Part shown: positions 3,528 through 49,468 of the stretch, piece after piece
Numbering within the stretch: the first letter of the stretch is position 1
How the letters are laid out: the number at the start of each line of letters is the position of its first letter
From: Eledone cirrhosa
Taxonomy: Eukaryota
Reading direction: 5' to 3'
NCBI GenBank assembly: GCA_964016885.1
Contig: OZ024744.1
Span: forward strand, 51,026,001-51,090,000
Length of the DNA: 64,000 nucleotides
Notes under the pieces: generated by a model
What the model saw: only the letters and a program-made list of their open reading frames with translations
What the model was told of the DNA's origin: nothing
Databases searched by the model: none
Program-made: the position numbers and the translations under genes

Positions 3528-3563
<36 letters not shown>

Positions 3564-3635: not shown

Positions 3636-3671
<36 letters not shown>

Positions 3672-6030: not shown

Positions 6031-6053
6031 GTACAGTCTACATTTATTGTCAA

Positions 6054-7740
6054 CTATAGGTATGTTCGAGCAGGATGACCTGCAACAGCTCCAGCTTCCA
6101 CAGTAAAGGTTCGAGAGTCAATACGTACAGAATGGAGGAAAGCGGGGACCATTGACGGACCGATCCCGTGATCTGAAACGATTCCGATAGTTGAGCAGAT
6201 GCCGCTATGCATTGCAGTGATCCAGCCTCTGAAGATAGGACCGAAGCCAGCTGCCTTGAGGACAGCCTTCAGGTATCGATGGTCAACCTTATCGAACGCT
6301 TTCGATTTATCTAAATTGATCATAACACTACCGAAGCCAGTTTTACAACCTACCCTCTCTATGATATATCGCATGAGTTGGAGGTTGTCGTGTATGGACC
6401 TGGTCGGGATTGCATAAGTTTGTGCATTCCCAACCAAATCCTCGAGGATAAGTGCTAACCTCTTCGCTAATATCTTGGCCAAAATCTTAATCTGTGTTGA
6501 GCAGTTATGGGCCTGAAATTATCTAAAGTATCCCTCTTGTTCTCCCCATCAGCGTTACTACGGCCCGGCTCACAGAACTGGGAATACCCCCGTTGTGCTG
6601 CCAGTTGTAGTAGAGTGCTTCGAGGAGACCAGAGAACAAGTCTGGCATGTCTACGTAAAGCTCGTCGGGCAGACCATCCAAACCGAGTAACGCGTTCCTC
6701 GTACAACCGACAAGGGCATCCTGAATTTCGTCTATTATCATCGGTATTTCGCAGAGTCATGGCAAGCCGCCGAGGTAGAAAATGAAATCTGCTATCGTGT
6801 CGGACTCCCCGATCCCCCGAACAGTCAAGCCAATTGCTGGTGGAAGGCTGCACACATCTGCCTGGAATCGTTCAGCAGCGTCCATCTCGGTCCAGTAAAG
6901 ACCGAATGATGGTTTTATTACCACGTTGCACCTCTGCCTCTCGGGTCCATCCAACAGCTTTGGTTCCTTCGTTTCTTAGAGCACGTGCCTTAGCCCCGAC
7001 AATGCAACCTTCGTGTTTCGCATTGAAGAAATGGTCCAATGCCATTCTCGTCGCTAGCACGTCTGTGGTGACCGGTCTCTTTAGGCTTTACTCACCAGGA
7101 ATGACGTGTTAAGCTTCCAATAATCGGTTTCTAACCTACATGTTCTATCTAGTTCAACCATGCAGATCACAAATTTGTGATATAAATAGGTGACCGTTCG
7201 GAAATGTGCACAACCTATACTATCCTTATTTGCTGATCTAACGAAAAACCTATCTACATACGATCTAGATAACCCTATGCGGTTGGTCTGGGCCCACTCT
7301 TGCGCATTGGAGAAATCTAGTCGGTACCTGTCGGTCAGTTGGAATTGGCTGATCAGGTACCTGAGGCTTTTTCTCCCTCTCCTACTACCGCACAATCCCG
7401 CGTGCGTCTAAAATGCCGTTCCAGTCTCCCGCTAACACTAAAGAGCAATACGTTCCCAAAAAACTTCCAGGTGCCTAAAGAATTCCGGCCGCTGCGACCA
7501 GTTTAAAGGCATCACTTTCGCTATTGCTCACATCCAGGACCACCAATTTACCGTCCGAATGAAGGAAGATCGCCCTTAACTCGAGATCCAGACCTCTCAT
7601 AAACAGCACTGCCACAACACCTCCCGTTCTCGGCCGACTAAGAGATGCGAAAATTTGATAGTTGTCGAAAATGGGGGCTAGTGCGCGTGTGTTTGAAATA
7701 CTGGTCTCGCCGATGGCAGTCACATCCATATCAAGTGCTG
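6054..7740 (-). mobile_element. Tx1/L1-like LINE ORF2 fragment (APE endonuclease, linker, RT N-terminal part), copy A
   Basis: LDMDVTAIGET, LTDRYRL, SYVDRFFV, YWKLNTS, GLDGLP, KILAKRL and LDKSKAFDKVDHRYL across broken ORFs. Confidence 0.85.
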
Positions 7741-10521
7741 AACGGTTGCTGAACGGCTGTGACAGGTGACCGTTTACCCTCACAACTGAGCAGATGTCGC
7801 TGTACATCGAAGCGACCCAACCCTTGAAAACGGGTCCGAAACCGGCTGCCTCGAGGACCGCCGCCAGGTACCGATGGTCGACCCTATCGAATGCTTTGGA
7901 TTGATCCAAGTTGATCAGGGCTCCACCCGTGACAGGTTCCTTAACCACCCTCTCTACGATGTATCTGTCCGGAATGGCTCATGTATGCACCTCTCCCACC
8001 AGACCCTTGACGACAAGCGCCAACCTCGTTGCTAACACCTTGGCCAAAATCTTGAACTCTGCGTTTAGCAGAGTTATGAGCCTGAAGTTATCGATAACAT
8101 CCCCCTTTTTCGGGTCTTTTCTCAGCACCTCCACCGCTCCCCGGCTCACAAAACTGGGAATGCTCCCGTTTTGCTGCCAGTTGCAGTAGACGTCTGCCAA
8201 GAGGTCAACGAACAAGTAGGGCAGACCGTCCAAACCTGGCGATTTACCCCTCGTGCAGTTAGCCATCGCTTCCCATATTTAACCGGCTGTTATTGGCTTT
8301 TCGCAACACTGTGCTGCGGTCGTCGAGAGCCAAGGCAGTCCGTCGAGGTATGCACTGAAGTCCATACCCCGATCCGGCCCGCTGCTGCTCCCGAACAGTT
8401 CAGCAAAGTGCTGCTGAAAAGCTTCACACATCTGCTCGGGTTCAAGCAACACGCGCCCATTTTGGTCAGACAAAGACAGAATTGTGGCTTTGTTGCCACG
8501 TCGCGCCTCTGCCACCCGGGCCCATAGGACGGATTTTGTCCCCTCGTGTTTCAGAGCACGCGCTCTAGCTCTGACAACGCAGCCTTCGTGTTTTGCGTTG
8601 GTTGAGTGCCAATCTCGCCGCAAGCATGTCGGTTGCGATGCCTGTCCTAAACGTCTCTTCTAGCTTTCTGACTAGCTCTCCCTCTACTCTATTTTCCTCT
8701 ATCGCTACTCCTTTGTTAAACCTAATCGACTCTACTTTAATTGCCCTTTTCAGGGCAAACCACCACCCGTCAACGCCCGCTTAACTAATGCGCTAATCCG
8801 GTCTCTGTAGGCCTTGCGCCCCGGGAAAGACGCGTTCAGCGTCCAGTAACCGGGTCCATGACTATGAAGTCTGTCTATGTCGATCTCACAGATCACAAAT
8901 TTGTGGTCTGTGTAGTCGACTATTTTAAATTGTGGACAACTTATACTAGCCTTATCTAGTTCTCTGCAGAAAACCCTATCGAGATACGATCTGGATGACC
9001 CGATGCGGTTTGTCCATGTCCACATTGGTACATTCGGGTGATCCAGTCGATACCTGTCAGACAGTTCAAAACGGTATCGAGCTGTGAAATGTCTGTGTGT
9101 TCAATTATGTAAGTCATTAGTTTCTTGTTGTGTGTATTTATTGCTGGGCATTTCTTTTTCTGGGGGTGGGGTGTGGTTCTGCTATTTTCTTGTCGTTGTT
9201 GCTGGGTGTGTGTGTTTTGTTGTTGTGTTTGCGATGTTGGTGCTTTTGGTGGTGTTGTTGAAGCTGTTGTTGTTATTGGCGGTGGGGTTGCCGCCGGTGG
9301 CGATGGTAGTGCTAGTGTGGGTGGTGATGGTGTTGGTGGTGTTGCTGATGTAAGTCTCTTTGCAGTAGTCTTCACCCTTTTTTCATTTTTTCCCTCCCTT
9401 TTCGAAGGCGACGATGCGCTGCGTCTGCGTTTGTGCTTTCTTGCGACCTTTTTACATCCCTCTCCCATCTCACACTCCATGTCCGATTCTGTGAGGTCGG
9501 GGAGGGGTACCAGCTCCACTCTTTCACTTGTTCTTGTTGGTGATGCTTGCAGTGGAGACTCTGTTGCAGCTGCAGTCGGTATTACTGTTGTTGTTGTTGT
9601 TAATACTTCCACTGCTGCTGCTGTTCTTGATTTCCATGGAGTGGGTATGGGTGCCACGGACCTATCCTTCCTGCTTGCCGCCTGTCCTGTTGCTGGTAGT
9701 AGTGGAACCTGTTTCGGAAGGAGGGGATTTCTCCTTTCTCTGGGTCTTCTCATTGCAGAAGGCCCTGAGGTGAGTCTTCGACCCACAGCGAAAGCATTTC
9801 GGGCGTTTGCCCTCAACACTTATGGGCAGTTGAGTGCCGTTATCGAAGTCTATCACATCCAGGATAGTTTCGATGCACTCCTGGTTGGTTTGAATTAACA
9901 TCTCAATGGAGGCGGCGACCCAATCTTCTCGTACTTTTTTCTATACTTGCAGTACGGTTGTTTTGTCCTCGATTCTGACGAGGACAGACGCGGCCAGCCA
10001 AAAGGGGCCATCCCGGGGGCGACTTGGGTCAGTTTGACCATCACAATTTTTGGCCCGCAGTAGGAGGGCACCAACACCATTTCCTCGCTCCTTAGGGTAA
10101 CTAAGGATTGAGCCTTTGCCTCCTGGAGTGTGGCAAAAAGCACGTCCACGGTGGCATATTTCTTGCCTCGGGTGATATGCGTTTTCCGCTGCCACACAGA
10201 CCCTAAGGCTTTTTGTATTTGAGCCTCTGTGGCTCTTTCAACCCTATGTGATTTTGTGCTTACTGTACGGTACGTGACCGTACAGTGCTGTTGGGTGTCG
10301 AAAAATTCTTCGGCTACCTTGCAGATTGCTCGGTGTCCGGTTTTCGTCACCATCTTCCTTGCTTCCTGTAATTCCTCATTTGTTATAAGGATGGTTTCCA
10401 GGTTCTGTGCGATACCTGCAAACGAGATTGGTTTTTCTTTCTTTTTGTTGTTGTCGTCAAAGCTGCTGTTACTTATCTTTTTGCTGCTTGTACTACGACT
10501 TCCGCCGCCGTTGTTGCTGTT

Positions 10522-12594: not shown

Positions 12595-15500
12595 AATAAA
12601 AATGAAAATTGAAACAATGAAATATTCCCCAATAGGGGGGAAACCTCCGAGGGTTACTCGTGGCGAAAACCACACAAAAGATCACGGCCACCCTGACCAC
12701 CAGGGCAAGCGCCCTCTCTCAATTTTTCCATTTCTCAAACTACAGGCGTATATTCAGAGCGGTCCCGTTCACTCGGACCATTCTCGCTACATTCACCCAC
12801 CTTTCAACAAACTTGCTAGAAGGCAGCACTTGCCTCTCCACCTTGATTTGCCTCTTCAAGTGAAACTTGAAAAAGTTAATTAGGGATTCGCCGAAGAAGA
12901 AAGTGTCTGTCTTTAACCCTTTCAACCTTGTCCACCACACAATCTCTTTTGCCATGGCCACCAGGCAGATGAAAACTGCCTGCTCTTCCTCCTCGAAGCA
13001 AGACGGCGAGACTCAGCCGATAACCGGATCAGTCCTACACGCGACAGCAACTGTTCGACATAGCTCCACAAGTCAGCAATGCAGCCGACAAAGGCGTCCT
13101 GAATTTCAGCTGAAGTAATCAGCCTTTCGCAGCGCTCAGCGTCGACCGTCGAGATGCGCGGCAAGCCGTCAAGGTAGGGACTGAAATCCGCTACTGTCTC
13201 TGACCCACCACTCTCCCCGAACAACCGAGCAAAGTGCTGGTGAAAGGCCTTACACATCCGCTTGGAATCGCTTATCTCGTGTCCGTCTCGGTCCGCCAAA
13301 GACCGAATTGTGATTTTATTACCACGCTGCGCCTCCGCCACGCGGGCCCATCGAACAGCTTTGGTTCCCTGGCACACGCCTTAGCTCTGACAATGCAAGC
13401 TTCGTGTTTCTCATTGAAGAAATGCTCCAATGCTCTAATTTCTAGAGACCTGAGATCGTTGAGCAAGTGACTCTGCTTCCAGGACGATACATGGCTTCGA
13501 ACATTTAAACTTCCTACTCTTAATACGGCCATGTTGGCAGGCTAAAAGAGAGAGGAAAGGTTTACTTACCTTCCGGGCTCTTGTGAAGGTCGGGAGGTTC
13601 AACCTCCATAGTTGGTGGGGTTTCTTTTAGGAACCCCTTTAAAAGTCTTGAAGTGGGTTTTACGTTCGGGGTTCCCACGTCCCGAGGAAAGCTGTCTCGT
13701 ATCTCTTTGTATAAATCGAGCGACATTCGCACCAGAAACAAATCGTCCGGCACGCGAAATGTGCTCGATTAAAAAATTTCCCCCTCTTTTTGTATTTCTT
13801 CACTTCGTGCTACGAGGGCCATTAGTTTCTTCTTGGCTCTCCTGACGAGCCCGAAGTTTTGTATGTTTTGTTTGCGTGGCTGTGGTGGTGATGGTTTTGA
13901 TGGTGTTGTTTCGGTTGTGTCTGTGTTTGTGGTGAGTGCGGTGTCTGTGGTTTTAGATGTTTGTGTGTGTATTTCTTGCGTCTGTTTAGGTTGTTTGCGT
14001 TTGAGGGATTCTGGTGATATTGATGGTGGTGTTGATGTTGGTGTTGTTGGGGAGATGTTTGCATGGGTGGTGTCTGCATTTTTTATTGTGGGTATTTTTG
14101 TGCTTTGTTGAGTTTTTTTTTTCTTTTTGTGTTTCCTTTTTTTTGTATTTTTGGGGATTTTGATTTTCCCTCATCTTCACTACTGGTAGATGAGGAGTTT
14201 GTGTCTGTAAGTGTGTCTGTGTGTTTATGTTTTTATTTATGTGTGTATTTTTGCGGGGAGGGGGATTATGACAACTTTCCTCGTTTCCCCCTGGGTGGTC
14301 AATGTTGGTGGTGGTCTTTCTGTTGGTGTTGTTCCTGGTGGTTTTGCCGGTGTTAGTGTTGGTTGTGGTCCTCGCCCCGGCGTTGGCAGCAGTGGAGCAC
14401 TTCGATCCCTTGCATCTTTCAGTAGTTGAGGGAAGAGGGCTCGCAAATGGGTTTTTCCCTCACAAACGAAACAATGCGGCCTTTTGACCTCAGTCATAAT
14501 GTGTATTACCGTCCCGTTCTGAAGACGGGTGTGGTCCGGGATTGTCTTCACATTCTCGGGCCTGAACTGGAGATGTATCTCCAGGTCAACCCCGGACCAG
14601 TCCTCTCTGGGAGTTCTTGTCACTTCTATCGGGACGGTATCCGTCCCCTCCACAATCACACATCTCAGAAGCCACCACATGTCAAGTCCTGGTGTGATTC
14701 TTGGTTCCTTTTCCCATATGGGAGGGGTACATTATGACTTTGCTGGTTTTGCAAGGTGTCATAGAGTGTGTCATAGCGAGGGCTTCTGACTTAAACAGCA
14801 CCGAAATGGTGCCGTATTGTCTGCCCCTCGCTATGTATTCGGTATCATCCCTGATGCACCTCAGCGCAACTTCGACATCTGCTTGTGGAATTAAACTGCC
14901 CTCTTGGTTTGTGCTGAGATGCATCTGTAAAGCACCGTTCTGCGCTCCACTGCTTCAATAGCTTCTACCGGGACAGTTAAGTTGGCACAGGTTTGCTCTT
15001 GCTTGATTAGCTTCCAGGCCTGGGCCAACTTTTAATCTTCGTTCGAGAGGTCCTTGCTGAAGCATGGCCTCTTTTTGGATGCTGCCGCAGCGAAAGTGTT
15101 CTTCTTGTTGTCGTTGGTGGTGTTGTTGCTGATGTCGTTGTTCTTGTTGGTGCTGTTGCTGTTATCACTGTTGCAGTTGGTTATATCTTTGGTGCCGCCG
15201 TTGTTGTTGTTCTCGGTGCAGTTGGTATTGTTGTTGTTGGTGCTATCGCTGTTTATGTTCTCGTTCGTGGTGTTAATTTCGTTGTTGCTTTGGTTGATAT
15301 TGTTGCTGCTGCTATTGTTGTTATTGTTGTTGTTGCTGTTGTTGTGGTTGTCACTGTTGTTGATATTGTTGTCTTTGTTGTCGTTCTTTCTGTTGTCATT
15401 ATTGCAGTTGTTGTTGATTTTCCTGTAGTTGTTGCTAGTGCTTTTGTCGTTCTTGTTCACGACTGTTTTTTTTTTTTTACTGTTTTTGGTAATGTCGCTG

Positions 15501-16549: not shown

Positions 16550-16843
16550 CTATTCTCAGCTAAGTTACCAGGCGATGCGTGGACACAGGGAACTTATACA
16601 AAAATAATTCAGTGGATGGAAAAAAGCAAGCGTGGACTAAATTCCAAGACATTGAAAAAATCACTGCCTACTTGGTCGGTGGCATATTCAAAAGAATCAA
16701 TCACGTGACATCGAGGTTAATCAGTGAGGAGTGGGGTGTTAAAAAGACAGTAGCCGAGCCATTGCTATGAACTATAGTAGCAGCTTTGGCAAATTTTTGC
16801 TCAACAAAATAATTTGGAGATAATTATAAAGAATTAGTATATT

Positions 16844-16914
<71 letters not shown>

Positions 16915-16974
16915 AAATATAAAGTAGCAAATAAGGACGAACTTGAAAAACTGAATACATATGCCTCTTGTATA

Positions 16975-18717
16975 ATGCATGAACTACACATTGAAAATAA
17001 AACACAACCCTTCATGCCAAGGAAACCTAAGATTAATATGAAGGATCATAAAAGAAACTTTGAAAATGATTTACCAGTCAGATTAATTGCACCATCTAAA
17101 TCTGACCTTGGCAGACTTAGCAAAAATATTCTAGACAGAATAATACAACAAATTAAGAATCTACCTAATTTATCTTACTTAAAATTATGGAAAGGGACTA
17201 GTGAGGTTATCGATTGGTTTAAAGAAATTAAATATAACTATAATAAGTTTATTCAGTTGGATATTGCTAACTACTACTCATCTATCACTCCTAATCTACT
17301 GAATAAGGCACTAACTTACGCATTTAAACATACAGACCTAACTAGCAATGAAATGCACATTATATTATCGGCACGGAAAACATTAATAGAATTTAATAAC
17401 CAACTCTGGACTAGGGCAGATAGAAATAATAATTTCGACATAACTATGGGATCTTCAGACTCAGCTCAGGTAACGGACCTTGTGGGCCTATTTATAATTA
17501 ATTCTCTACATAGAAAAATACCAGGTGTAACCGGAGGCTTATATCGTGACGACATGCTTTTGCTTATAGAAAATAATAGCTGTGAACTAAATAGAAAAAG
17601 AAAACAAATTATACAATTTTTTAATTACCTTAATCTAAAAGTAGAAATAGAGAATAACCATAAAATAGTCAATTTTCTAGATGTAACACTAAATCTTAAC
17701 ACATGTCTTCATTATCCATTTCACAAACTAAATGAGAACTTAAATTATGTCAATTTTAACTCTAATCACCCCAGACCCGTTAAAAATACTATAGTGAACT
17801 CTGTACAAGAACGAATTTCAAGAATTTCATCTAATAAGAATATATTTGATGAAAAAGCGCATTATTACAACGAAGCGTTAGGTAGAGCTGGGTATAGAAA
17901 TAAAATTAAATACATCGATAATAATAATAATATAAAAACTAACCAAAATAATAACAATTTTAACTATGGTAACAATTTTAACAACTATAATAGAAAACAT
18001 TACAATAATTCCGAAAGCCGAAAAAGAAATAGAACTAGGAATATACTATGGTTCGCTCCTCCTTTCTCACTAAATATTAAAACCCCTATTGCTAAATTAT
18101 TCTTTAAAGCTCTTGACAAACGCTTCTCTAGAACACATAGATATTACTCAATTTTTAATAAACATACTATAAAATTAACTTACTCTTCCACCAAAAATTT
18201 AGCGCAAAATATTAATAGAATTAATAATAGAAATTTAAAACCTAACCAAAATACCAATAATAACCCAAGCAATATTCAATCGAATAATTGTAACTGTAGA
18301 AATAAATCCAACTGTCAGTTAAATAACAACTGCTTAGCTAAAAATGTAGTTTATATTTGTAATGTTAAAACTAATTTAAATTCATTTAATTATGTCGGTT
18401 CTACCTCCACAGAGTTTAAATCCCGCTTCAATAATCATAAAAATTCTTTTACAGATCCAAACAAAAAATCTTCAGCTTCGCTATCTAGCCTATTATGGGA
18501 CCTAAAACGAAATAATGTTGAATATTCGCTGATTTGGAATATTATTTCAAAAGCTACTCCTTTTAATTCCTCTTCAGAAAATTGCGATCTTTGTATAGAG
18601 GAAATATTCTTTATATTAAAGACCAAAAATGCCCTTAATTTAAGGAATAATTTATTCAGTTGCTGCAGACATAGATTGAACTCAACGTTTAAATATAAAT
18701 ATAAATTTAAAATGTAG
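16975..18717 (+). CDS. Penelope-like RT + GIY-YIG polyprotein, uninterrupted 580 aa, probably 5'-truncated (Hydra-like lineage)
   Basis: KDHK, RLIAPSKSDLG, FIQLDIANYYSSI, FDITMGSSDSAQ, GLYRDD, NFLDVTLNL, CNCRNKSNC, VVYICNV..YVGST and FKSRFNNH. Preceded by (TA)n. Confidence 0.92.
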   Translation: MHELHIENKTQPFMPRKPKINMKDHKRNFENDLPVRLIAPSKSDLGRLSKNILDRIIQQIKNLPNLSYLKLWKGTSEVIDWFKEIKYNYNKFIQLDIANYYSSITPNLLNKALTYAFKHTDLTSNEMHIILSARKTLIEFNNQLWTRADRNNNFDITMGSSDSAQVTDLVGLFIINSLHRKIPGVTGGLYRDDMLLLIENNSCELNRKRKQIIQFFNYLNLKVEIENNHKIVNFLDVTLNLNTCLHYPFHKLNENLNYVNFNSNHPRPVKNTIVNSVQERISRISSNKNIFDEKAHYYNEALGRAGYRNKIKYIDNNNNIKTNQNNNNFNYGNNFNNYNRKHYNNSESRKRNRTRNILWFAPPFSLNIKTPIAKLFFKALDKRFSRTHRYYSIFNKHTIKLTYSSTKNLAQNINRINNRNLKPNQNTNNNPSNIQSNNCNCRNKSNCQLNNNCLAKNVVYICNVKTNLNSFNYVGSTSTEFKSRFNNHKNSFTDPNKKSSASLSSLLWDLKRNNVEYSLIWNIISKATPFNSSSENCDLCIEEIFFILKTKNALNLRNNLFSCCRHRLNSTFKYKYKFKM

Positions 18718-21392: not shown

Positions 21393-21536
21393 TATAATGG
21401 TTATTGAGGCGGTTTGTATAATAATATATTTTTATTTTATCATTCTGTCTGCTTCTTGGTTAAATATTTCAAACAAATGTGGTTTTTCAACCCTTGTAAT
21501 TTTAGATACACAGTTTACTGTGTTTCTTACTATATA

Positions 21537-24522
21537 TAAAAACAAATAACGAAACGAAATTAAATTTCGTTTCGTTTGTAACTCACTTTTGTATGACTGA
21601 CGCTTAAACAATTAAGTTAAAAATGTACATCCACATATGTATACTGAAATACTAGTATGCATATGAATACACACACGTATACATATGTAGATGTACCAAG
21701 TCTTTCACTGGTTACTTTACTGTGAGTACCCAGCTATTCTGTATGTAAACACACAGACAAACCGGTTTTTAGAGTCATACTGGTTTTTGAGGAAACACCT
21801 TTCCTCTATTCTCCAGAAAGCCAGACAAGGAATATTGAACTAGTTTCGTTGTTGTTACAACTCATCAGCAATATTTACCTATCTACCGGCCTTTCTGGAG
21901 AATCGTAAAAGCACATATCGTTATATGCTTTTTCTATGAAAATTAGTAGTGGGCAGACTAATTTGCATAGAGTGTGAGTACGTACCGGCTCAACGGAGAC
22001 GATAAAAACAAATAACGAAACGAAATTAAATTTCGTTTCGTTTGTAACTCACTTTTGTATGACTGACGCTTAAACAATTAAGTTAAAAATGTACATCCAC
22101 ATATGTATACTGAAATACTAGTATGCATATGAATACACACACGTATACATATGTAGATGTACCAAGTCTTTCACTGGTTACTTTACTGTGAGTACCCAGC
22201 TATTCTGTATGTAAACACACAGACAAACCGGTTTTTAGAGTCATACTGGTTTTTGAGGAAACACCTTTCCTCTATTCTCCAGAAAGCCAGACAAGGAATA
22301 TTGAACTAGTTTCGTTGTTGTTACAACTCATCAGCAATATTTACCTATCTACCGGCCTTTCTGGAGAATCGTAAAAGCACATATCGTTATATGCTTTTTC
22401 TATGAAAATTAGTAGTGGGCAGACTAATTTGCATAGAGTGTGAGTACGTACCGGCTCAACGGAGACGATAAAAACAAATAACGAAACGAAATTAAATTTC
22501 GTTTCGTTTGTAACTCACTTTTGTATGACTGACGCTTAAACAATTAAGTTAAAAATGTACATCCACATATGTATACTGAAATACTAGTATGCATATGAAT
22601 ACACACACGTATACATATGTAGATGTACCAAGTCTTTCACTGGTTACTTTACTGTGAGTACCCAGCTATTCTGTATGTAAACACACAGACAAACCGGTTT
22701 TTAGAGTCATACTGGTTTTTGAGGAAACACCTTTCCTCTATTCTCCAGAAAGCCAGACAAGGAATATTGAACTAGTTTCGTTGTTGTTACAACTCATCAG
22801 CAATATTTACCTATCTACCGGCCTTTCTGGAGAATCGTAAAAGCACATATCGTTATATGCTTTTTCTATGAAAATTAGTAGTGGGCAGACTAATTTGCAT
22901 AGAGTGTGAGTACGTACCGGCTCAACGGAGACGATAAAAACAAATAACGAAACGAAATTAAATTTCGTTTCGTTTGTAACTCACTTTTGTATGACTGACG
23001 CTTAAACAATTAAGTTAAAAATGTACATCCACATATGTATACTGAAATACTAGTATGCATATGAATACATATGCATACTAGTATTTCAGTATACATATGT
23101 GGATGTACATTTTTAACTTAATTGTTTAAGCGTCAGTCATACAAAAGTGAGTTACAAACGAAACGAAATTTAATTTCGTTTCGTTATTTGTTTTTATCGT
23201 CTCCGTTGAGCCGGTACGTACTCACACTCTATGCAAATTAGTCTGCCCACTACTAATTTTCATAGAAAAAGCATATAACGATATGTGCTTTTACGATTCT
23301 CCAGAAAGGCCGGTAGATAGGTAAATATTGCTGATGAGTTGTAACAACAACGAAACTAGTTCAATATTCCTTGTCTGGCTTTCTGGAGAATAGAGGAAAG
23401 GTGTTTCCTCAAAAACCAGTATGACTCTAAAAACCGGTTTGTCTGTGTGTTTACATACAGAATAGCTGGGTACTCACAGTAAAGTAACCAGTGAAAGACT
23501 TGGTACATCTACATATGTATACGTGTGTGTATTCATATGCATACTAGTATTTCAGTATACATATGTGGATGTACATTTTTAACTTAATTGTTTAAGCGTC
23601 AGTCATACAAAAGTGAGTTACAAACGAAACGAAATTTAATTTCGTTTCGTTATTTGTTTTTATCGTCTCCGTTGAGCCGGTACGTACTCACACTCTATGC
23701 AAATTAGTCTGCCCACTACTAATTTTCATAGAAAAAGCATATAACGATATGTGCTTTTACGATTCTCCAGAAAGGCCGGTAGATAGGTAAATATTGCTGA
23801 TGAGTTGTAACAACAACGAAACTAGTTCAATATTCCTTGTCTGGCTTTCTGGAGAATAGAGGAAAGGTGTTTCCTCAAAAACCAGTATGACTCTAAAAAC
23901 CGGTTTGTCTGTGTGTTTACATACAGAATAGCTGGGTACTCACAGTAAAGTAACCAGTGAAAGACTTGGTACATCTACATATGTATACGTGTGTGTATTC
24001 ATATGCATACTAGTATTTCAGTATACATATGTGGATGTACATTTTTAACTTAATTGTTTAAGCGTCAGTCATACAAAAGTGAGTTACAAACGAAACGAAA
24101 TTTAATTTCGTTTCGTTATTTGTTTTTATCGTCTCCGTTGAGCCGGTACGTACTCACACTCTATGCAAATTAGTCTGCCCACTACTAATTTTCATAGAAA
24201 AAGCATATAACGATATGTGCTTTTACGATTCTCCAGAAAGGCCGGTAGATAGGTAAATATTGCTGATGAGTTGTAACAACAACGAAACTAGTTCAATATT
24301 CCTTGTCTGGCTTTCTGGAGAATAGAGGAAAGGTGTTTCCTCAAAAACCAGTATGACTCTAAAAACCGGTTTGTCTGTGTGTTTACATACAGAATAGCTG
24401 GGTACTCACAGTAAAGTAACCAGTGAAAGACTTGGTACATCTACATATGTATACGTGTGTGTATTCATATGCATACTAGTATTTCAGTATACATATGTGG
24501 ATGTACATTTTTAACTTAATTG
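21537..24522. mobile_element. Retrozyme-like inverted tandem array, 466-bp monomer: about 3.3 copies (-) and 3.1 copies (+)
   Basis: Exact period of 466 (21543, 22009, 22475, 22941). Inversion centre at 23064-23067. Hammerheads at 21831-21875, 22297-22341 and 22763-22807 (-), and 23324-23368, 23790-23834 and 24256-24300 (+). CTTACTATATAT flanks both sides. Confidence 0.92.
23324..23368 (+). ncRNA. Minimal type I hammerhead (466-bp family; representative of 6 copies)
   Basis: AATATTG | CTGATGA | GTTGT-aaca-ACAAC | GAAAC-TA-GTT^ | CAATATT. Stem I extends by TTCTCCAGAAAG pairing with CTTTCTGGAGAA. Confidence 0.9.
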
Positions 24523-24524
24523 CT

Positions 24525-24621
<97 letters not shown>

Positions 24622-24859: not shown

Positions 24860-25697
24860 AAATTAAGATAAATAAAATGAATTTAATCTAAATCAAAATT
24901 ATGGGTGTCATGCCAGAAAGACATGCGTCATATCACCCGGAAAATAAGCTCTAAGATTCTAACGAGTAGGTCCGAGCATTTTATAATAACTAGAAATTGA
25001 TTAACATATATATAAACATGAATAATCACAGGAGATAATTTTTACAAGTGTGTAACCACACATAGCTAGGTAGGTAACTAAATAAAGTTGACTAGAACTT
25101 CAAAAATAAATACTTTATAATATGATTAATCTTCCCTGTATATATTCCATTAAAGAAATATATTTCACCAATTAATCAGATGGTAAACCACGGAAGTGGA
25201 GATTTGGATTTTCAACAAGGAAGAAATTTCCAGCCATCCGCGCTTACACTTCAAGTTCAAATCTGCAACTGGCTATTACCACGTGTAGTATTTACTATAA
25301 ATACACACATCATAGTAGCTTCGTCCCAGTGGCGTGAATAGGGTTATCGACAACTAGAAACAGCAGTCGAGTCCTTTCAACAGAGTTAGCTCTGCAATTA
25401 AGGAGCCATATTTATATATCTCTATCCAAAATTAAGATAAATTAAATGAATTTAATCTAAATCAAAATTATGGGTGTCATGCCAGAAAGACATGCGCCAT
25501 ATCACCCGGAATATAAGCTCTAAGATTCTAACGAGTAGGTCCGAGCATTTTATAACAACTAGAAATTGATTAACATATATATAAACATGAATAATCACAG
25601 GAGATAATTTTAACAAGTGTGTAACCACACATAGCTAGGTAGGTAACTTAATAAAGTTGACTAGAACTTCAAAAATAGATACCTTATAATATGATTA
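24858..25697. repeat. Tandem repeat, 569-bp unit, about 1.5 copies, between (TA)n tracts
   Basis: caaaattaagata at 24858 and 25427, with about 270 bp of near-identity. Confidence 0.9.
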
Positions 25698-25718
25698 TAT
25701 ATATATATATATATATAT

Positions 25719-28700
25719 ATACATTATGAAGAGAGAAGAAACATTTAGATATAATTAGTAATAAAATGTATCATACCTAAACTGTTCCTAAATTCCTCGA
25801 CTACGTAGTTTCGTGGCATAAACAAAAACAATATATCAAAGATATAGAGTCCTTGCGAGGTCTGCCGACTTATCAAGAGGATACCTCATTTTACTAGTCT
25901 CAAGAACGCGTCTACACGACGTGAGAAAGAATCCCAAAAGGCGGAGGGGGAGATAGTCACGCGATATAACGGTCGAGAAACAGAGCTAAGCCTCTTATAA
26001 CCACGAAAAAAATACCACGGAGGCGGAGGGGGTATTCATATCGAGGCCGTAGAAGAGGTAGTGAAGAAGGCGAGAAGTATGAGTAATGGAAGCTTTCCAG
26101 TTGTCCCCACACTTCAAAGATTGCTCGACCAGAGGGAGTTATTAATACATTTAGAAACACACAGATACACGCGGACACACACATATATACATGAATGCAT
26201 CCGCACCCAACTGTGAGTTAAGGGTGCCAACTTCACCGATGTTGCTCAATGAATGACTGGGACAGACCAATTCAGTTTGAACCAGACTGAACCAGTATCA
26301 GAGTTAAAAATACATTATGAAGAGAGAAGAAACATTTAGATATAATTAGTAATAAAATGTATCATACCTAAACTGTTCCTAAATTCCTCGACAACGTAGT
26401 TTCGTGGCATAAACAAAAACAATATATCAAAGATATAGAGTCCTTGCGAGGTCTGCCGACTTATCAAGAGGATACCTCATTTTACTAGTCTCAAGAACGC
26501 GTCTACACGACGTGAGAAAGAATCCCAAAAGGCGGAGGGGGAGATAGTCACGCGATATAACGGTCGAGAAACAGAGCTAAGCCTCTTATAACCACGAAAA
26601 AAATACCACGGAGGCGGAGGGGGTATTCATATCGAGGCCGTAGAAGAGGTAGTGAAGAAGGCGAGAAGTATGAGTAATGGAAGCTTTCCAGTTGTCCCCA
26701 CACTTCAAAGATTGCTCGACCAGAGGGAGTTATTAATACATTTAGAAACACACAGATACACGCGGACACACACATATATACATGAATGCATCCGCACCCA
26801 ACTGTGAGTTAAGGGTGCCAACTTCACCGATGTTGCTCAATGAATGACTGGGACAGACCAATTCAGTTTGAACCAGACTGAACCAGTATCAGAGTTAAAA
26901 ATACATTATGAAGAGAGAAGAAACATTTAGATATAATTAGTAATAAAATGTATCATACCTAAACTGTTCCTAAATTCCTCGACTACGTAGTTTCGTGGCA
27001 TAAACAAAAACAATATATCAAAGATATAAAGTCCTTGCAATATATCAAAGATATAGAGTCCTTGCGAGGTCTGCCGACATCGGTGAAGTTGGCACCCTTA
27101 ACTCACAGTTGGGTGCGGATGCATTCATGTATATATGTGTGTGTCCGCGTGTATCTGTGTGTTTCTAAATGTATTAATAACTCCCTCTGGTCGAGCAATC
27201 TTTGAAGTGTGGGGACAACTGGAAAGCTTCCATTACTCATACTTCTCGCCTTCTTCACTACCTCTTCTACGGCCTCGATATGAATACCCCCTCCGCCTCC
27301 GTGGTATTTTTTTCGTGGTTATAAGAGGCTTAGCTCTGTTTCTCGACCGTTATATCGCGTGACTATCTCCCCCTCCGCCTTTTGGGATTCTTTCTCACGT
27401 CGTGTAGACGCGTTCTTGAGACTAGTAAAATGAGGTATCCTCTTGATAAGTCGGCAGACCTCGCAAGGACTCTATATCTTTGATATATTGTTTTTGTTTA
27501 TGCCACGAAACTACGTAGTCGAGGAATTTAGGAACAGTTTAGGTATGATACATTTTATTACTAATTATATCTAAATGTTTCTTCTCTCTTCATAATGTAT
27601 TTTTAACTCTGATACTGGTTCAGTCTGGTTCAAACTGAATTGGTCTGTCCCAGTCATTCATTGAGCAACATCGGTGAAGTTGGTACCCTTAACTCACAGT
27701 TGGGTGCGGATGCATTCATGTATATATGTGTGTGTCCGCGTGTATCTGTGTGTTTCTAAATGTATTAATAACTCCCTCTGGTCGAGCAATCTTTGAAGTG
27801 TGGGGACAACTGGAAAGCTTCCATTACTCATACTTCTCGCCTTCTTCACTACCTCTTCTACGGCCTCGATATGAATACCCCCTCCGCCTCCGTGGTATTT
27901 TTTTCGTGGTTATAAGAGGCTTAGCTCTGTTTCTCGACCGTTATATCGCGTGACTATCTCCCCCTCCGCCTTTTGGGATTCTTTCTCACGTCGTGTAGAC
28001 GCGTTCTTGAGACTAGTAAAATGAGGTATCCTCTTGATAAGTCGGCAGACCTCGCAAGGACTCTATATCTTTGATATATTGTTTTTGTTTATGCCACGAA
28101 ACTACGTAGTCGAGGAATTTAGGAACAGTTTAGGTATGATACATTTTATTACTAATTATATCTAAATGTTTCTTCTCTCTTCATAATGTATTTTTAACTC
28201 TGATACTGGTTCAGTCTGGTTCAAACTGAATTGGTCTGTCCCAGTCATTCATTGAGCAACATCGGTGAAGTTGGCACCCTTAACTCACAGTTGGGTGCGG
28301 ATGCATTCATGTATATATGTGTGTGTCCGCGTGTATCTGTGTGTTTCTAAATGTATTAATAACTCCCTCTGGTCGAGCAATCTTTGAAGTGTGGGGACAA
28401 CTGGAAAGCTTCCATTACTCATACTTCTCGCCTTCTTCACTACCTCTTCTACGGCCTCGATATGAATACCCCCTCCGCCTCCGTGGTATTTTTTTCGTGG
28501 TTATAAGAGGCTTAGCTCTGTTTCTCGACCGTTATATCGCGTGACTATCTCCCCCTCCGCCTTTTGGGATTCTTTCTCACGTCGTGTAGACGCGTTCTTG
28601 AGACTAGTAAAATGAGGTATCCTCTTGATAAGTCGGCAGACCTCGCAAGGACTCTATATCTTTGATATATTGTTTTTTGTTTATGCCACGAAACTACGTA

Positions 28701-31310
28701 GTCGAGGAATTTAGGAACAGTTTAGGTATGATACATTTTATTACTAATTATATCTAAATGTTTCTTCTCTCTTCATAATGTATTTTTAACTCTGATACTG
28801 GTTCAGTCTGGTTCAAACTGAATTGGTCTGTCCCAGTCATTCATTGAGCAACATCGGTGAAGTTGGCACCCTTAACTCACAGTTGGGTGCGGATGCATTC
28901 ATGTATATATGTGTGTGTCCGCGTGTATCTGTGTGTTTCTAAATGTATTAATAACTCCCTCTGGTCGAGCAATCTTTGAAGTGTGGGGACAACTGGAAAG
29001 CTTCCATTACTCATACTTCTCGCCTTCTTCACTACCTCTTCTACGGCCTCGATATGAATACCCCCTCCGCCTCCGTGGTATTTTTTTCGTGGTTATAAGA
29101 GGCTTAGCTCTGTTTCTCGACCGTTATATCGCGTGACTATCTCCCCCTCCGCCTTTTGGGATTCTTTCTCACGTCGTGTAGACGCGTTCTTGAGACTAGT
29201 AAAATGAGGTATCCTCTTGATAAGTCGGCAGACCTCGCAAGGACTCTATATCTTTGATATATTGTTTTTGTTTATGCCACGAAACTACGTAGTCGAGGAA
29301 TTTAGGAACAGTTTAGGTATGATACATTTTATTACTAATTATATCTAAATGTTTCTTCTCTCTTCATAATGTATTTTTAACTCTGATACTGGTTCAGTCT
29401 GGTTCAAACTGAATTGGTCTGTCCCAGTCATTCATTGAGCAACATCGGTGAAGTTGGTACCCTTAACTCACAGTTGGGTGCGGATGCATTCATGTATATA
29501 TGTGTGTGTCCGCGTGTATCTGTGTGTTTCTAAATGTATTAATAACTCCCTCTGGTCGAGCAATCTTTGAAGTGTGGGGACAACTGGAAAGCTTCCATTA
29601 CTCATACTTCTCGCCTTCTTCACTACCTCTTCTACGGCCTCGATATGAATACCCCCTCCGCCTCCGTGGTATTTTTTTCGTGGTTATAAGAGGCTTAGCT
29701 CTGTTTCTCGACCGTTATATCGCGTGACTATCTCCCCCTCCGCCTTTTGGGATTCTTTCTCACGTCGTGTAGACGCGTTCTTGAGACTAGTAAAATGAGG
29801 TATCCTCTTGATAAGTCGGCAGACCTCGCAAGGACTCTATATCTTTGATATATTGTTTTTGTTTATGCCACGAAACTACGTAGTCGAGGAATTTAGGAAC
29901 AGTTTAGGTATGATACATTTTATTACTAATTATATCTAAATGTTTCTTCTCTCTTCATAATGTATTTTTAACTCTGATACTGGTTCAGTCTGGTTCAAAC
30001 TGAATTGGTCTGTCCCAGTCATTCATTGAGCAACATCGGTGAAGTTGGCACCCTTAACTCACAGTTGGGTGCGGATGCATTCATGTATATATGTGTGTGT
30101 CCGCGTGTATCTGTGTGTTTCTAAATGTATTAATAACTCCCTCTGGTCGAGCAATCTTTGAAGTGTGGGGACAACTGGAAAGCTTCCATTACTCATACTT
30201 CTCGCCTTCTTCACTACCTCTTCTACGGCCTCGATATGAATACCCCCTCCGCCTCCGTGGTATTTTTTTCGTGGTTATAAGAGGCTTAGCTCTGTTTCTC
30301 GACCGTTATATCGCGTGACTATCTCCCCCTCCGCCTTTTGGGATTCTTTCTCACGTCGTGTAGACGCGTTCTTGAGACTAGTAAAATGAGGTATCCTCTT
30401 GATAAGTCGGCAGACCTCGCAAGGACTCTATATCTTTGATATATTGTTTTTTGTTTATGCCACGAAACTACGTAGTCGAGGAATTTAGGAACAGTTTAGG
30501 TATGATACATTTTATTACTAATTATATCTAAATGTTTCTTCTCTCTTCATAATGTATTTTTAACTCTGATACTGGTTCAGTCTGGTTCAAACTGAATTGG
30601 TCTGTCCCAGTCATTCATTGAGCAACATCGGTGAAGTTGGCACCCTTAACTCACAGTTGGGTGCGGATGCATTCATGTATATATGTGTGTGTCCGCGTGT
30701 ATCTGTGTGTTTCTAAATGTATTAATAACTCCCTCTGGTCGAGCAATCTTTGAAGTGTGGGGACAACTGGAAAGCTTCCATTACTCATACTTCTCGCCTT
30801 CTTCACTACATCTTCTACGGCCTCGATATGAATACCCCCTCCGCCTCCGTGGTATTTTTTTCGTGGTTATAAGAGGCTTAGCTCTGTTTCTCGACCGTTA
30901 TATCGCGTGACTATCTCCCCCTCCGCCTTTTGGGATTCTTTCTCACGTCGTGTAGACGCGTTCTTGAGACTAGTAAAATGAGGTATCCTCTTGATAAGTC
31001 GGCAGACCTCGCAAGGACTCTATATCTTTGATATATTGTTTTTGTTTATGCCACGAAACTACGTAGTCGAGGAATTTAGGAACAGTTTAGGTATGATACA
31101 TTTTATTACTAATTATATCTAAATGTTTCTTCTCTCTTCATAATGTATTTTTAACTCTGATACTGGTTCAGTCTGGTTCAAACTGAATTGGTCTGTCCCA
31201 GTCATTCATTGAGCAACATCGGTGAAGTTGGCACCCTTAACTCACAGTTGGGTGCGGATGCATTCATGTATATATGTGTGTGTCCGCGTGTATCTGTGTG
31301 TTTCTAAATG

Positions 31311-31314
<4 letters not shown>
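25719..31314. mobile_element. Retrozyme-like inverted tandem array, 591-bp monomer: about 2.3 copies (-) and 7.2 copies (+)
   Basis: Period 591/592. Junction at about 27078 is preceded by a 27-bp duplication. Variant hammerhead in every unit, with TTGATAA starting at 27443, 28034, 28625, 29217, 29808, 30399 and 30991 (+), and full motifs at 25794-25881 and 26385-26472 (-). (TA)n on both sides. Confidence 0.93.
27438..27525 (+). ncRNA. Type I hammerhead with U3-A8 variant core (representative of 9 copies)
   Basis: TCCTC | TTGATAA | GTcGGCA...TGCCAC | GAAAC-TACGTA-GTC^ | GAGGA. Predicted cleavage after 27520. Confidence 0.85.
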
Positions 31315-31349
<35 letters not shown>

Positions 31350-31469
31350 TATATATACGTATACATACTTATATTTAAGTATGTATACGTATATATCACT
31401 TTTTCCATATATATATATATATATATGTGTATATATATATGTATATATATATATATATATGGTAATATG

Positions 31470-32920: not shown

Positions 32921-33021
<101 letters not shown>

Positions 33022-33029
33022 CATTCAGA

Positions 33030-33445
33030 TGTTATATATATATATATGAATGTATATACAGTGTATTTTGCAATACACTGTATGCTTAATTAAAAACATT
33101 TTGAAGATCTTACGCTATTGTTTTAAAGCAGTGACTATGTCACTTACTTCTTTTTTCAACAAACAAAGGGAGATAAGCTGACACAGTTCCTGATTATTAC
33201 TGGAATTCTACAAGAATCCAACATTCATAATTTTCAACAAACAAGAGGAGTGCTAAGCTCTGAGGAATACCAACAGTATGAAACAGAGATCTGTCAGCTT
33301 TTCTCCCTTTGTTTGTTGAAAAAAAGATGAAGTAAGTGACATAGTCACTACTTTAAAACAATAGCGTATGGTCTTCAAAATGCTTTTAATTAAGCATACA
33401 GTGTATTGCAAAATACACTGTATATACATTCATATATATATATCG
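33030..33445. repeat. Inverted repeat with arms of about 150 bp (pLTR-like fold-back) containing a hammerhead
   Basis: 33030-33183 mirrors 33293-33445. Confidence 0.85.
33255..33300 (+). ncRNA. Compact type I hammerhead
   Basis: AAGCT | CTGAGGA | ATAC-caaca-GTAT | GAAACAGA-ga-TCTGTC^ | AGCTT. Confidence 0.9.
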
Positions 33446-33461
33446 CTATTTCAGAATTCTA

Positions 33462-33503
<42 letters not shown>

Positions 33504-33728
33504 ATAATAATAAATTTGAAGACTAAAATCCAAAGAGGGCTCAATAAGGATAAATATATATCAAATATATAAGAACCGTAGAGCAAGTTTAAGAAAAGAA
33601 TCGCTGTTTTCACCCTTAACGTATTCACATTTATTTAAAGGCTCGATAAAATAAAGTACCAGTAATACACTGGGATAATTGCTGGCCTTGTTCCAAAAGT
33701 AGAAACAATTATTATTATTATCTCTATA

Positions 33729-33915: not shown

Positions 33916-33929
33916 TATTATCTCTCTAT

Positions 33930-36900
33930 ATATAGTAATAATAAATTTGAAGACTAAAATCCAAAGAGGGTTCGATAAGGATAAATATATATCAAATATA
34001 TAAGAACCATAGAGCAAATATTTATTAAAATAACAGATTAAAGTTTAAGCAAAGAATCGAAGCTTTCACTCTTAACGGGATCTTCTGAAACAAAAAAAGT
34101 CTATCTGTGAACGCAGAAGTAAATATTTCAAAAAACGTTGCAACCGAAGGAAGACAGGAAGACGATACTTTGGTTCGTGGAAACGTTCCCTGGCAAAGAA
34201 CAGAAAAAAACGACGATAATACGAAGATAAAACGTCATGTGGATCGATGAGAACAATTACACGCAAAGACAAAACCACGTTTATGGTATAAATGAAGTCG
34301 TAGACTAATATTCTCTTAGGTGGAGACGTTCTCTGGCAAAGAACGGAAAAAACGAAGATAATACGTCATTATGTCGATCACTGAAAACAATTACACGCAA
34401 AGACAAAACCACGTAAATGGTATAACTGAAGTCGTCGACTAAAATTCTATTTAGGAAACCGAATGATTCTCGGCTTCAGAGTTAAGAATAAAGTAAATAA
34501 AATACTGAGGTAATTGAAATTAAATATATACATACACGCATCCAAATACACAAGCATACGCGAAAACACTCGCCATGGGTATGTAAATACAAGCACGTAC
34601 AAATAAAAAAAAACCCGCACGTACAAACAGAACCCACGCAACGCCTGTACCCGCACACATACGAACGTATACACCAAATACACATCAAAATATATATATA
34701 AAAAATATATATATATATATGTGTGTGTGTGTGCGTGTATACATAATTAAATAAACGTATATAAATATACACACATATATACGTATATAACGCGCGCACA
34801 CACCTACATGTAAATACACATCTGTTCGCGGACGTACGTCAACCAAAACACAAAGTACACATATACACACACCCTACATACGTACGAACCCGCATACTCA
34901 CACAGAGGCAAAACTCACGTATACACATAACCAAATGCACATGTACCAGTATATATAATATATACGCCATAAGATATACAAGCAAATATACGTACGGGAA
35001 AGTATACGTACCTTCACAAAACATACAGGTAATATATACTTACCTATATAAATAAGTAATGGTATAAAGATAACATATACTTAGCTACCACATCAAGACG
35101 TAAAATATCCGCGTATAGCTCGTACTATCCGTTAGCGTATAATGTGGGGCTGTAATACAGGAAAGTTTTGTGCAATTGATGTTTACAAGCCGAAATTGCC
35201 TCAGATTTTTTGTTTAAGATGTGGTCTTTGGCGTAGAGTATTTCCCGGGCCTCATCGGCGCAGAGGTCACATGGTCTTTTATTTCCGTTATACGATCTAG
35301 CCTCAGCTAGGATATCCCAGTGTAACTTATATTGGATGTGTGGTAGTCTTTTAGACTCCAGATATAAGCTGAAAGTGACGTCATATTTCTTCTTAAAGGG
35401 TTAAGAAAAGAATGGGTATGCATGTAAAGACGCTGCTTGAATTCATTGGCGGTTAACCCTATGTAGGCCCTACGGGTCGTGGGTGTTTCAACCTTACATT
35501 TATAGACAATGTTACTAGAGAGGCATTTCCCAGATAGGGGCAGTCAACCCGATTCCTACAATTACAGTTAGTACTAGCTACAGGGTTTCACGTGTTCCTA
35601 CGGCTAGGTAATTTAGCTAAATTTGAAGCTGTGATGTTATGTGCAAGGTTAGGAGTCGTAGAGTAAGATATTTTAATGGTATTTCTATTAAAATTTTTAC
35701 TATATTTATGTGCTGGGGAGAAATGCTTCATAATAAAGGAGAGAAAGATCTTAGCTAATAGTGTGGCCACCTCCATATTATATGGTGGGACCATATAATC
35801 CGCCGGGATCTATTTTTCCTAGGTCTATTTTCGTACTCAGTATAAGCTACCTTATCGACAAATCCACTCCGAGCAAGAGCTTCATTGTAATACGTGGAAT
35901 GGTCGGTGAAAATATGCTCGTTTGTAGATAGACGGGAAAGCCGCAAAGAAACGTTTCTTACCAGGTTATTGGTTATGCTGGCAGGATGGTTAGAATTCTT
36001 ACTTATGTAATTAAGCGTATCATTCGGCTTTGTATACGGGTAGTGCAAGCCATTCGACAAATTGAGGGTAACGTCGAGGTAATTAACGACCGAGAGGTTG
36101 GCCTCAACCTGTATGGAGAGGTTGAAGCCTTTAAAGAAGGCTGTGAGTTCTTTTCTGAACCTGTCGCAAGCACGTGGGCCGCACTTTGTCATGGTCAAAA
36201 GACCGTCATCACGGTACAAACCACCGCCCACGTTGGAGAATTCTTCCTTGATAGAGAAAAGAAGGAAAAGGCCGATAAGATCAGTAACCTCCTCAGAATC
36301 GCTGGCGCCCATACTCACATCGAATGGGGTACTATTAGATTTTTTAATCCAAATAGAGTCGTCGAAATTAATCACCGACTTACGGGCACTGAGGATGACA
36401 TCAACTTCGAAATCCTTAACCACTATGAATGTTTTAGCGAAATTGATAGCTCTAAGAAGAAGTGGTAAAGTGATGGAGGAGTAGTAATTATTGATGTCGA
36501 ATTGGATAAAACGGCAATGTTCCTTGTTGCATATGCCGTTGAACCAATCAATCGCCGCGAAAGAATTGTTCCACAGTGCAGGAGGGGCCAAACTTCTAAT
36601 TTCAGGTATAATTCTATCTAAAATCCTTTTACTAAGTCTACCTAAATCGGACTTCGTAGGGTTAATAAGCCGAATAGAGGGGTTGTTCGGGAAATTGGAT
36701 TTGTGATCCTTCAGGGTAAAGTGGGGAGAAATAGGTTTCAGAGGTTCGGTCCGGTCCAGAATGTTGAGATCAGAGGTGATTTTAAACCCAGCATCGTTGA
36801 TTTCATTAATGACGCACCGATTAGTTTTACGGTAATCCTTAGTTACAACATTATGTAGTAGTTGATGGTAAGTACTGCGCTCCACTTGATATAGGTTGCC

Positions 36901-37208
36901 AGTTTTGTCGGAATGGACGTGCACGGCATTATAATCCTTAATAGAACGAATTCTATTCTTCAGGTCCTGCTGGAAGGAATTGCTCCTATTCCGAAATTTG
37001 ATACTCCGTATGAGTTCCAAGACATCATTTTCGAAGGGTAACAATGCTCGGAGGGTTATTATAGGTTTTAAACCCAAATGTATCCTGTTTGTTTTCTGCT
37101 TTTCCCTGATTTACGAAATAAAAGGCACGCCAACGTAACCTTTTAAATCCCGTTAAGGGTGAAAGCAGCGATTCTTTGCTTAAACTTTAATCTGTTATTT
37201 TAATAAAT
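33930..37208 (-). mobile_element. Penelope-like element (Hydra-like) with 3' UTR/pLTR and an inverted pLTR piece at its 5' end
   Basis: ORF 35755-37077 has SDKTGNLY, LKDHK, FIQFDINNYYSSI, GLYRDDGL and NYLDVTLNL. GIY-YIG remnant at 35200-35580. Segment 37148-37208 is an inverted copy of 34016-34082. Confidence 0.9.
34043..34091 (-). ncRNA. Hammerhead-like motif with CAGAAGA (U4A) core in the pLTR
   Basis: Minus strand: GTTT | CAGAAGA | TCCC-gttaa-GAGT | GAAAGC...TGCTT^ | AAAC. Copies at 55261-55311 (-) and 58425-58469 (+, 3'-deleted). Confidence 0.6.
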
Positions 37209-37256
37209 ATATATATATATGTATAAACATACACATGGTATGTACACACACACACA

Positions 37257-39049: not shown

Positions 39050-45800
<6,751 letters not shown>

Positions 45801-46409
45801 TAAGCCTTATACGTCCCGAAGAACAGTACATTACTCAAGAATGTAATAAGCACTTTAACAGAAAATTAAAGTGGCTTAAACAGGCAAAGCTAAATCGGGA
45901 TACTATAGAGTATACCAATAGATATCCCGACAAAATTGACGGTATCAACATGGCCGACACCTCATTATCTGAAGAGTTCAACAATGAAAATACCAACATC
46001 TATGGAAACACGGAAATAGATAATAATGAAATGTCTGTGTTACGTCTGCCACCCAAATTTGCGACATTCAAGAAGGTAAATATGATTAGTTGTCTGTCAG
46101 AAATAGAAAAATCATTTACGAAACTACGCTGGAGCATCAAAAACAAAAACAAAAACAAAAGCAACAATATACGCACACACATATACAACACACATCCCAA
46201 CAACAACAGACACACAGACACAAACAACAATAACAACAACAATAGCAACATACCCAGATACAACAACAACAGACACGCAAACACAAACAACAATAACAAC
46301 ACACACAACAACGATAACACACACACACACGGAGACAACAACAACACACATCAACAACAACACACATCAACAACAACACACATCAACAACAACAACACAC
46401 ACGCATTCA

Positions 46410-49118: not shown

Positions 49119-49321
49119 GGACAAAATGAAAACACACACACACATAGAACAAACAACTTACAATCGAAAACACACACAAAATGAAAACACACACAAGACA
49201 AAATGAAAACACACACACACATAGAACAAACAACCAACCAACAATAAATAAATAAATAAACAAACAAATAGAAAAATATAAATAGATAAATAGAAAAATG
49301 AACACAAACACACACAGACAC

Positions 49322-49377
49322 CCGGATGTGGCGCATGCGCAAACTGAGCACGCAACCCACACACAAACAAAATGGCG
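49322..49377 (+). promoter_or_regulatory. Clustered ETS-, NRF1- and YY1-like motifs in the PLE pLTR
   Basis: CCGGATGT at 49322, GCGCATGCGC at 49331 and CAAAATGGCG at 49368, within 56 bp. Confidence 0.55.
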
Positions 49378-49423
49378 TAGGATAGAAGAAAGGAAAGACA
49401 CAGAAACGAAGAACGAAATCCCC

Positions 49424-49468
49424 AGTCACTGAAGAGGTCACAGAGTGTGTGACGAAAGAACTATGACT
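49424..49468 (+). ncRNA. Minimal type I hammerhead in the PLE 3' pLTR
   Basis: AGTCA | CTGAAGA(G) | GTCACA-gagtg-TGTGAC | GAAAG-AA-CTA^ | TGACT. Confidence 0.85.

Follow-up and report, generated by a model that had tools for sequence, protein, structure and literature searches.

The 591-bp unit repeated in the window (the whole 64,000-nucleotide stretch of Eledone cirrhosa DNA analysed here) is probably a non-LTR retrozyme with a conserved U3-A8 hammerhead, which would be copied into TA repeats by a Penelope-like reverse transcriptase/endonuclease from what are likely 591-nt circles. The core swap is already published, natural cases being described in passages of two papers (PMC3088659; PMC4209133), and adds little; the variant features of the family are its long helix II insert, 167-nt tail and putative target-paired priming. 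The original prediction had missed the context, which is a dispersed Penelope-type insertion and not a local array.

The whole array is a single insertion of two arms placed head to head inside (TA)n (Table 1), and its units are more than 99.6% alike. They are tandem and non-coding and carry one type I hammerhead each, as non-LTR retrozymes do; the longest ATG frame in a unit is 75 aa, with no ORF for reverse transcriptase (RT) plus GIY-YIG. Two variants recur 1,774 bp apart in the array. An origin of such period-3 variants from a trimer circle was ruled out, since their phase is broken by the last unit. The loss of phase suggests, instead, that a three-unit block was duplicated after the insertion or in assembly, and the seven-unit length here is partly due to this later duplication or assembly expansion.

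Table 1 Positions of the 591-bp array and of its hammerhead motifs in the window
Feature	Position	Strand	Remark
(TA)n target, left	25696..25721	.	
Inverted arm of 2.3 units, which stops in (TA)n at start site A (+80)	25719..27078	-	27-bp duplication at 27011-27065
Intact hammerhead copy, inverted arm	25794..25881	-	U3 at 25876
Hammerhead copy carrying a helix III substitution	26385..26472	-	Substitution at 26393
Long arm of 7.2 units (591 bp each, in tandem), which stops in (TA)n at start site B, about +247 from the cut site	27077..31319	+	Holds the duplicated three-unit block
Type I hammerhead motif, first plus-strand copy	27438..27525	+	Predicted cut between 27520 and 27521
Core UUGAUAA	27443..27449	+	U3 = 27443, A8 = 27448
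Helix II, GUCGGCA / UGCCAC	27450..27506	+	Its closing loop is a variable 44-nt insert (27457-27500) that holds an inner hairpin
Palindromic helix III, ACUACGUAGU	27510..27519	+	
Internal copy of the site A motif, AATGTAT, +80 from the cut site	27594..27600	+	Loose ends, then AT repeats, at 27600 in run X3
Internal copy of the site B motif, +245 to +250	27759..27770	+	Loose end at 27765 in run X3
(TA)n target, right	31314..31460	.	

As originally predicted, every complete 591-bp unit (9/9, seven plus and two minus) carries the hammerhead motif, with U3 at 27443, 28034, 28625, 29217, 29808, 30399 and 30991 on the plus strand and at 25876 and 26467 on the minus strand; the third inverted unit stops at the inversion point, before the core. 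The motif follows the type I core pattern N3-U-G-A-N-N8-A ... GAAA ... UH with a 3:8 pair. Its UUGAUAA core, stem I (read from the sequence as UCCUC, 27438-27442, paired with GAGGA, 27521-27525), GAAA box (27507-27510), palindromic helix III and GUC site all lie where they had been placed, and the site ends in C17 at 27520, in agreement with the new 5′ end predicted at 27521. Stem II is real as well, with two pairs, a bulged C and four pairs, but the 44-nt insert with its own hairpin had been overlooked, and the loop is not short. Two adjacent units elsewhere in the same genome (C4:341452722 and C4:341453287) have an identical loop-II deletion, and the insert may thus be partly dispensable. 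The reported substitution at 26393 is also real and falls inside helix III, where it breaks a pair and lowers the predicted stability of the palindrome duplex from -12.9 to -3.7 kcal/mol. The 88-nt motif region by itself is not unusually stable (z 0.08; 121 nt folded). Rfam, at the gathering score, gave no match in the 64-kb window, but the adjacent array also went unrecognised, although its hammerheads are canonical C3-G8; the miss, thus, is not specific to U3-A8.

In a pattern search of the 3.0-Gb genome, the 3′ half of the motif gave 7,458 exact matches and the U3-A8 5′ half 6,311, while the reversed-pattern controls for both halves gave none. The 591-bp unit is therefore a dispersed, multi-copy non-coding family, and its motif is not due to chance. 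Contigs from four sequencing runs cover the unit; one contig, from run X1, is self-closing at 621 nt, which tandem DNA would yield as readily as a circle. Position 3 deviates in fourteen copies and position 8 in fourteen, the two never together, and a C3-G8 copy with this helix III was not found in the genome at the short or long spacings tried. The lineage is fixed for U3-A8, so that the swap cannot be observed inside it.

For a cleaner test of selection, loci were picked by a flanking word, which gave 13 units from 11 loci, 73-78% alike to the window unit. Differences were fewest in the core (6/156) and helix III (6/104), followed by stem I (14/130) and stem II (21/169), as against 173/572 in the loop-II insert and 773/3,399 in the rest of the unit; the 13 units share ancestry and, hence, represent few independent events. 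A separate conservation count, in which N7 was mostly constant in the young family, is biased toward the 3′ half of the motif, as many loci had been picked on it. An older lineage (35 matches, none in the control) keeps U3-A8 while helix III becomes ACUGUACAGU. Among 44 distinct motif types, from which 24 loci chosen for core variants were left out, the 3:8 pair is U-A in 40, C-A in two, U-G in one and C-G in one, the last a mis-anchored U-A; G10.1-C11.1 is present in 42/44, and N7 across the older lineage is U in 34, A in five, C in three and G in two. Pairs of stems I and II exchange U-A and C-G among the motif types, and helix III is a perfect palindrome, of two kinds, in 39/44. These comparisons support the three helices by covariation (the swaps in stems I and II and the two helix III palindromes), and also support retention of the motif and its 3:8 pair under selection. 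Conservation of U3/A8 in dispersed copies had been expected, and the pair is indeed kept in 13/13 units of the diverged subfamilies and 40/44 older-lineage types.

Could the motif be retained merely as a structure or a protein-binding site for the helper enzyme, its cleavage lost? This seems very unlikely: conservation is highest in the catalytic residues and the 3:8 pair, all four bases occur at N7 in the older lineage, and positions 3 and 8, as far as is known, pair only in the active hammerhead fold. The constancy of N7, a free position, in most of the young family would nevertheless fit such a role, as would the low activity of metazoan minimal hammerheads noted in part of one paper (PMC4209133).

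The palindrome had been thought to suit cleavage in a dimer. Its palindromicity survives the four-base change from ACUACGUAGU to ACUGUACAGU, and the middle four bases of helix III, which would be a free loop in the monomer, stay self-complementary in 39/44 types, which favours pairing of the palindrome between two hammerheads. The anatomy, however, does not demand a dimer: the monomer, by prediction, can fold with a helix III of 3 bp closed by a tetraloop, and its constrained active fold (-20.7 kcal/mol) is predicted to lie only 1.1 kcal/mol above the minimum (-21.8).

The paired change at 3:8 had itself been read as a sign of selection. Although the swap is not visible within the family's own lineage, in which no C3-G8 copy was found, C-G/U-A covariation does occur in a sister family. 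A genome scan with a generic U3-A8 descriptor gave 164 matches, versus 15 in the control, and several other families, one of which has a C3-G8 relative in the window at 33260. This element, at about 32966-33515, belongs to a roughly 320-bp family in which it is C3-G8 and the remaining members are U3-A8. With positions 3 and 8 left free, the pattern matched 2,302 times in the genome, and the first 100 of these listed comprise, by hand count, 47 C3-G8, 48 U3-A8 and five unpaired. Downstream flanks are homologous across the two groups (75% alike on average), and a tree of the 95-nt flank (83 rows, no support values) places the 13 C-G rows in one clade. The C-G/U-A change in the sister family thus reads as one paired switch, not 95. 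Among the first 100 matches listed, 10.1-11.1 is A-U or U-A in nearly all C3-G8 copies and G-C in nearly all U3-A8 copies; a trade-off between 10.1-11.1 and 3:8 is possible, and would rest on that one event. With these C3-G8 and U3-A8 sister subfamilies the genome offers a natural pair for kinetic comparison.

Ends of the arms were mapped by BLAST of 98 non-redundant insertions. Arm 3′ ends, which are fused to TA repeats, lie at +80 from the cut site (A) or in a range of +225 to +256 (B), most of the latter at +245 to +250. All 38 classifiable two-armed insertions are A/B, with no A/A or B/B (p 3.6e-12; 98 insertions), and all 38 combine a partial tandem, an inverted truncated arm and a one-sided tail, as expected of a Penelope-like derivative. 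Another 47 have one classed end (24 A, 23 B), the other arm being cut off in some loci; the rest are two two-armed insertions with one odd end, three with one odd end and eight with none classed. At least one end is joined to TA repeats in 90/98, which marks the microsatellite as the target. In run X3, which may be the assembly's own sample, loose ends run into AT repeats at both places. At site A the TA repeat runs on in register, and the G of AATGTAT reads A in 16/74 terminal versus 0/134 internal copies, with a few duplicate loci remaining among them. Priming through short pairing explains the site A pattern, as would evenly spaced starts combined with a nick of fixed phase. The one-end-per-arm rule also holds in 5/5 two-armed loci of the neighbouring 466-bp family. 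In a coding Penelope-like family, about 95 nt separate two ends; end-sequence likeness to this coding family was significant in one of five tests. ORFs near hammerheads in the fetched loci were, as far as inspected, separate insertions, and none was homologous to the 591-bp unit. At L014:775-1150 an old subfamily arm is joined to a young one in one insertion, likely by a template switch between related RNAs.

Arm 5′ ends, in contrast to the 3′ ends, are scattered: 4/109 lie within -4..+5 of the cut (p 0.09), one of them an alignment break, in loci picked on the motif. They are not piled up at the cut site, and the genome therefore shows no direct trace of cleavage. The combination of fixed 3′ and scattered 5′ ends with head-to-head arms, TA targets and thousands of short dispersed insertions, together with conservation of the motif across subfamilies 72-78% alike, already largely refutes an ordinary satellite DNA spread by unequal exchange with a relic motif aboard. 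We regard that explanation as scarcely tenable, even though a three-unit block is duplicated in the window array and a 2026 preprint prefers, in part of its text, local amplification for retrozyme tandems (bioRxiv 10.64898/2026.07.22.740005).

Variants private to single insertions bear on the template. In 91 insertions, private alleles were confined to a single copy in 122 cases, present in all copies in 25 and partial in two. Ten insertions carry such fixed alleles across tandem units or across at least three copies. One insertion (L083) has four private variants in all of its 7-8 units, in both arms. Sixteen of the 25 all-copies variants are two-arm cases, ten of them 2-of-2, which do not separate a circle from a line. 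Private variants fixed in every unit suggest that all units were copied from one monomer. Since priming takes place downstream of the cut site and copying proceeds through it, this monomer would most simply be a religated circle, and a circle is the likely template. The monomer is also strongly self-paired by prediction (z -5.4; circular fold z -4.8, with 30 shuffles).

The same mobile element might instead use a linear RNA, either a multimer left uncut or cut monomers linked through template jumps, with a slow or protein-assisted hammerhead that only frees the RNA from read-through transcripts. We consider this unlikely. Heterogeneous multimers should leave variants in some units across both arms, and these were seen once as against 25 fixed, despite 122 unit-specific singletons; moreover, arms outside this window cross the cut site cleanly up to five times. 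On the other hand, a linear template would agree with arm ends that are not piled at the cut site, young and homogeneous source arrays would likewise yield shared variants, and hammerhead mutants inserted normally in vitro, as reported in passages of one study (PMC11167929).

With a circular template, the mechanism would run as follows. Tandem transcripts would self-cleave, probably as paired hammerheads, into 591-nt monomers, which would likely be ligated into circles, and a Penelope-like RT/endonuclease would copy the circles into TA repeats. Both nicked target strands would prime by few-base pairing, at +80 and about +247; each cDNA would travel round the template for 0.1 to about 5 units, and the two cDNAs would then join head to head. 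Tentatively, the family may thus be a clean genomic record of Penelope-type integration, in which the two strands of a cut TA repeat both prime on one ribozyme-made monomeric RNA circle, at two fixed sites that are guided by pairing and lie 167 nt apart.

The window holds several further elements of this kind. In a second head-to-head array (21536-24526) the unit is 466 bp long, and each full unit has a type I hammerhead of the canonical C3-G8 kind; the family of this array has 5,114 exact genome matches and two fixed ends about 70 nt apart. The coding Penelope-like family, which ends in (TA)n, is found at 33927-37210 and 55142-58480, and also at locus L167:2471-6126, and is a candidate helper class; in the displayed copies, its 3′ repeat has a hammerhead-like motif that reads CAGAAGA, with A at position 4. 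A near-complete Penelope-like ORF (45746-49680; 1,003-aa frame, RT match) has a minimal C3-G8 hammerhead at 49429 and an (AT)n end. Pfam named RT in only one of six window ORFs, and named none of 463-1338 (-), 16813-18717 (+) and 42082-44047 (-), which we take to be further Penelope-like RT/endonuclease frames; some of these carry asparagine-rich inserts. A small AT-rich family (20327, 51845, 52000) has CUGANGA...GAAA hammerhead-like cores, one pair oppositely oriented. There are also a long (AACAAC)n array (2390-4249) and several LINE-like RT fragments (5324-8000 and 12922-13380).

Natural U3-A8 hammerheads have been reported before. Perreault 2011 (PMC3088659), in the passages concerned, states the 3:8 pairing, its covariation from C3-G8 to U3-A8 in several natural ribozymes and, citing Przybilski & Hammann 2007, the in vitro activity of U3-A8 pairs, and mentions palindromic helix III dimers; these passages describe no mobile-element anatomy. 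Cervera & de la Pena 2014 (PMC4209133), also in part, tie about 1,300 U3-A8 minimal hammerheads to Schistosoma Penelope-like elements and propose circles as more-than-unit templates. The Cercyon elements of Schistosoma mansoni, as described in the same passages, share with the 591-bp family the type I form, the UUGAUAA heptamer (in one listed family), the palindromic helix III and opposite-strand pairs 100-700 bp apart. Most of them, however, occur as single motifs that lack a helix III stem and have a short loop II, whereas our family has tandem units, a 10-nt palindrome, a 44-nt loop-II insert and no bulge after A9.

Non-LTR retrozymes were defined, and their circles shown in mussel, by Cervera & de la Pena 2020 (PMC7229834), and Li, Clavereau & Pollet 2026 (bioRxiv 10.64898/2026.07.22.740005) derive retrozymes from Penelope pLTRs; in the latter, Xenopus retrozyme dimers cleaved in 1/9 cases and did not in 8/9. 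According to passages of both sources, metazoan non-LTR retrozymes resemble the 591-bp family in their non-coding tandems, one type I hammerhead per unit, thousands of copies, self-paired monomer and Penelope-like elements in the genome. The 591-nt unit is longer than the 170-400 nt given in PMC7229834 but falls inside the 51-972 bp range of bioRxiv 10.64898/2026.07.22.740005, and the head-to-head arms with fixed ends are absent from the retrozyme descriptions in these passages. Circles have been shown for metazoan retrozymes (PMC7229834, in part), while the 591-bp family is known here from genomic sequence.

Likewise, Penelope-like insertions share with the family partial tandems, an inverted 5′-truncated arm, a tail at one end and (TA)n targets, as set out in parts of three papers (PMC8557442; PMC3846280; PMC11167929). 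Their tail is 30-40 nt, compared with about 167 nt in the 591-bp family, which also is without an ORF. Of these papers, Craig 2021 (PMC8557442) calls the origin of tandem and inverted Penelope structures and of the microsatellite bias unresolved, in the passage concerned, and Arkhipova 2013 (PMC3846280) proposes, in hers, self-priming on an antisense template. In one reconstituted Penelope-like system (passages of Frangieh 2024; PMC11167929), hammerhead mutants insert normally and uncut RNA is the main substrate. Two internal RT start sites downstream of the hammerhead were found there in vitro, matching the two ends of the 591-bp family; the starts are non-homologous, whereas junctions of our family suggest pairing with the target. 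Our literature search found no paper on this family, on a strict one-end-per-arm rule or on dual priming on circles; supplements of the bioRxiv preprint, which lie outside that search, could bear on this.

The interest of the family, thus, lies in its insertions. If both target strands indeed prime on one circle, a single mechanism would account for the head-to-head arms, the one-sided tail and the partial tandems, and dual priming would replace self-priming on an antisense template. In a short, young, ORF-free family with a long tail the two start sites are easy to score, which makes it a compact substrate for testing dual priming and the use of circles.
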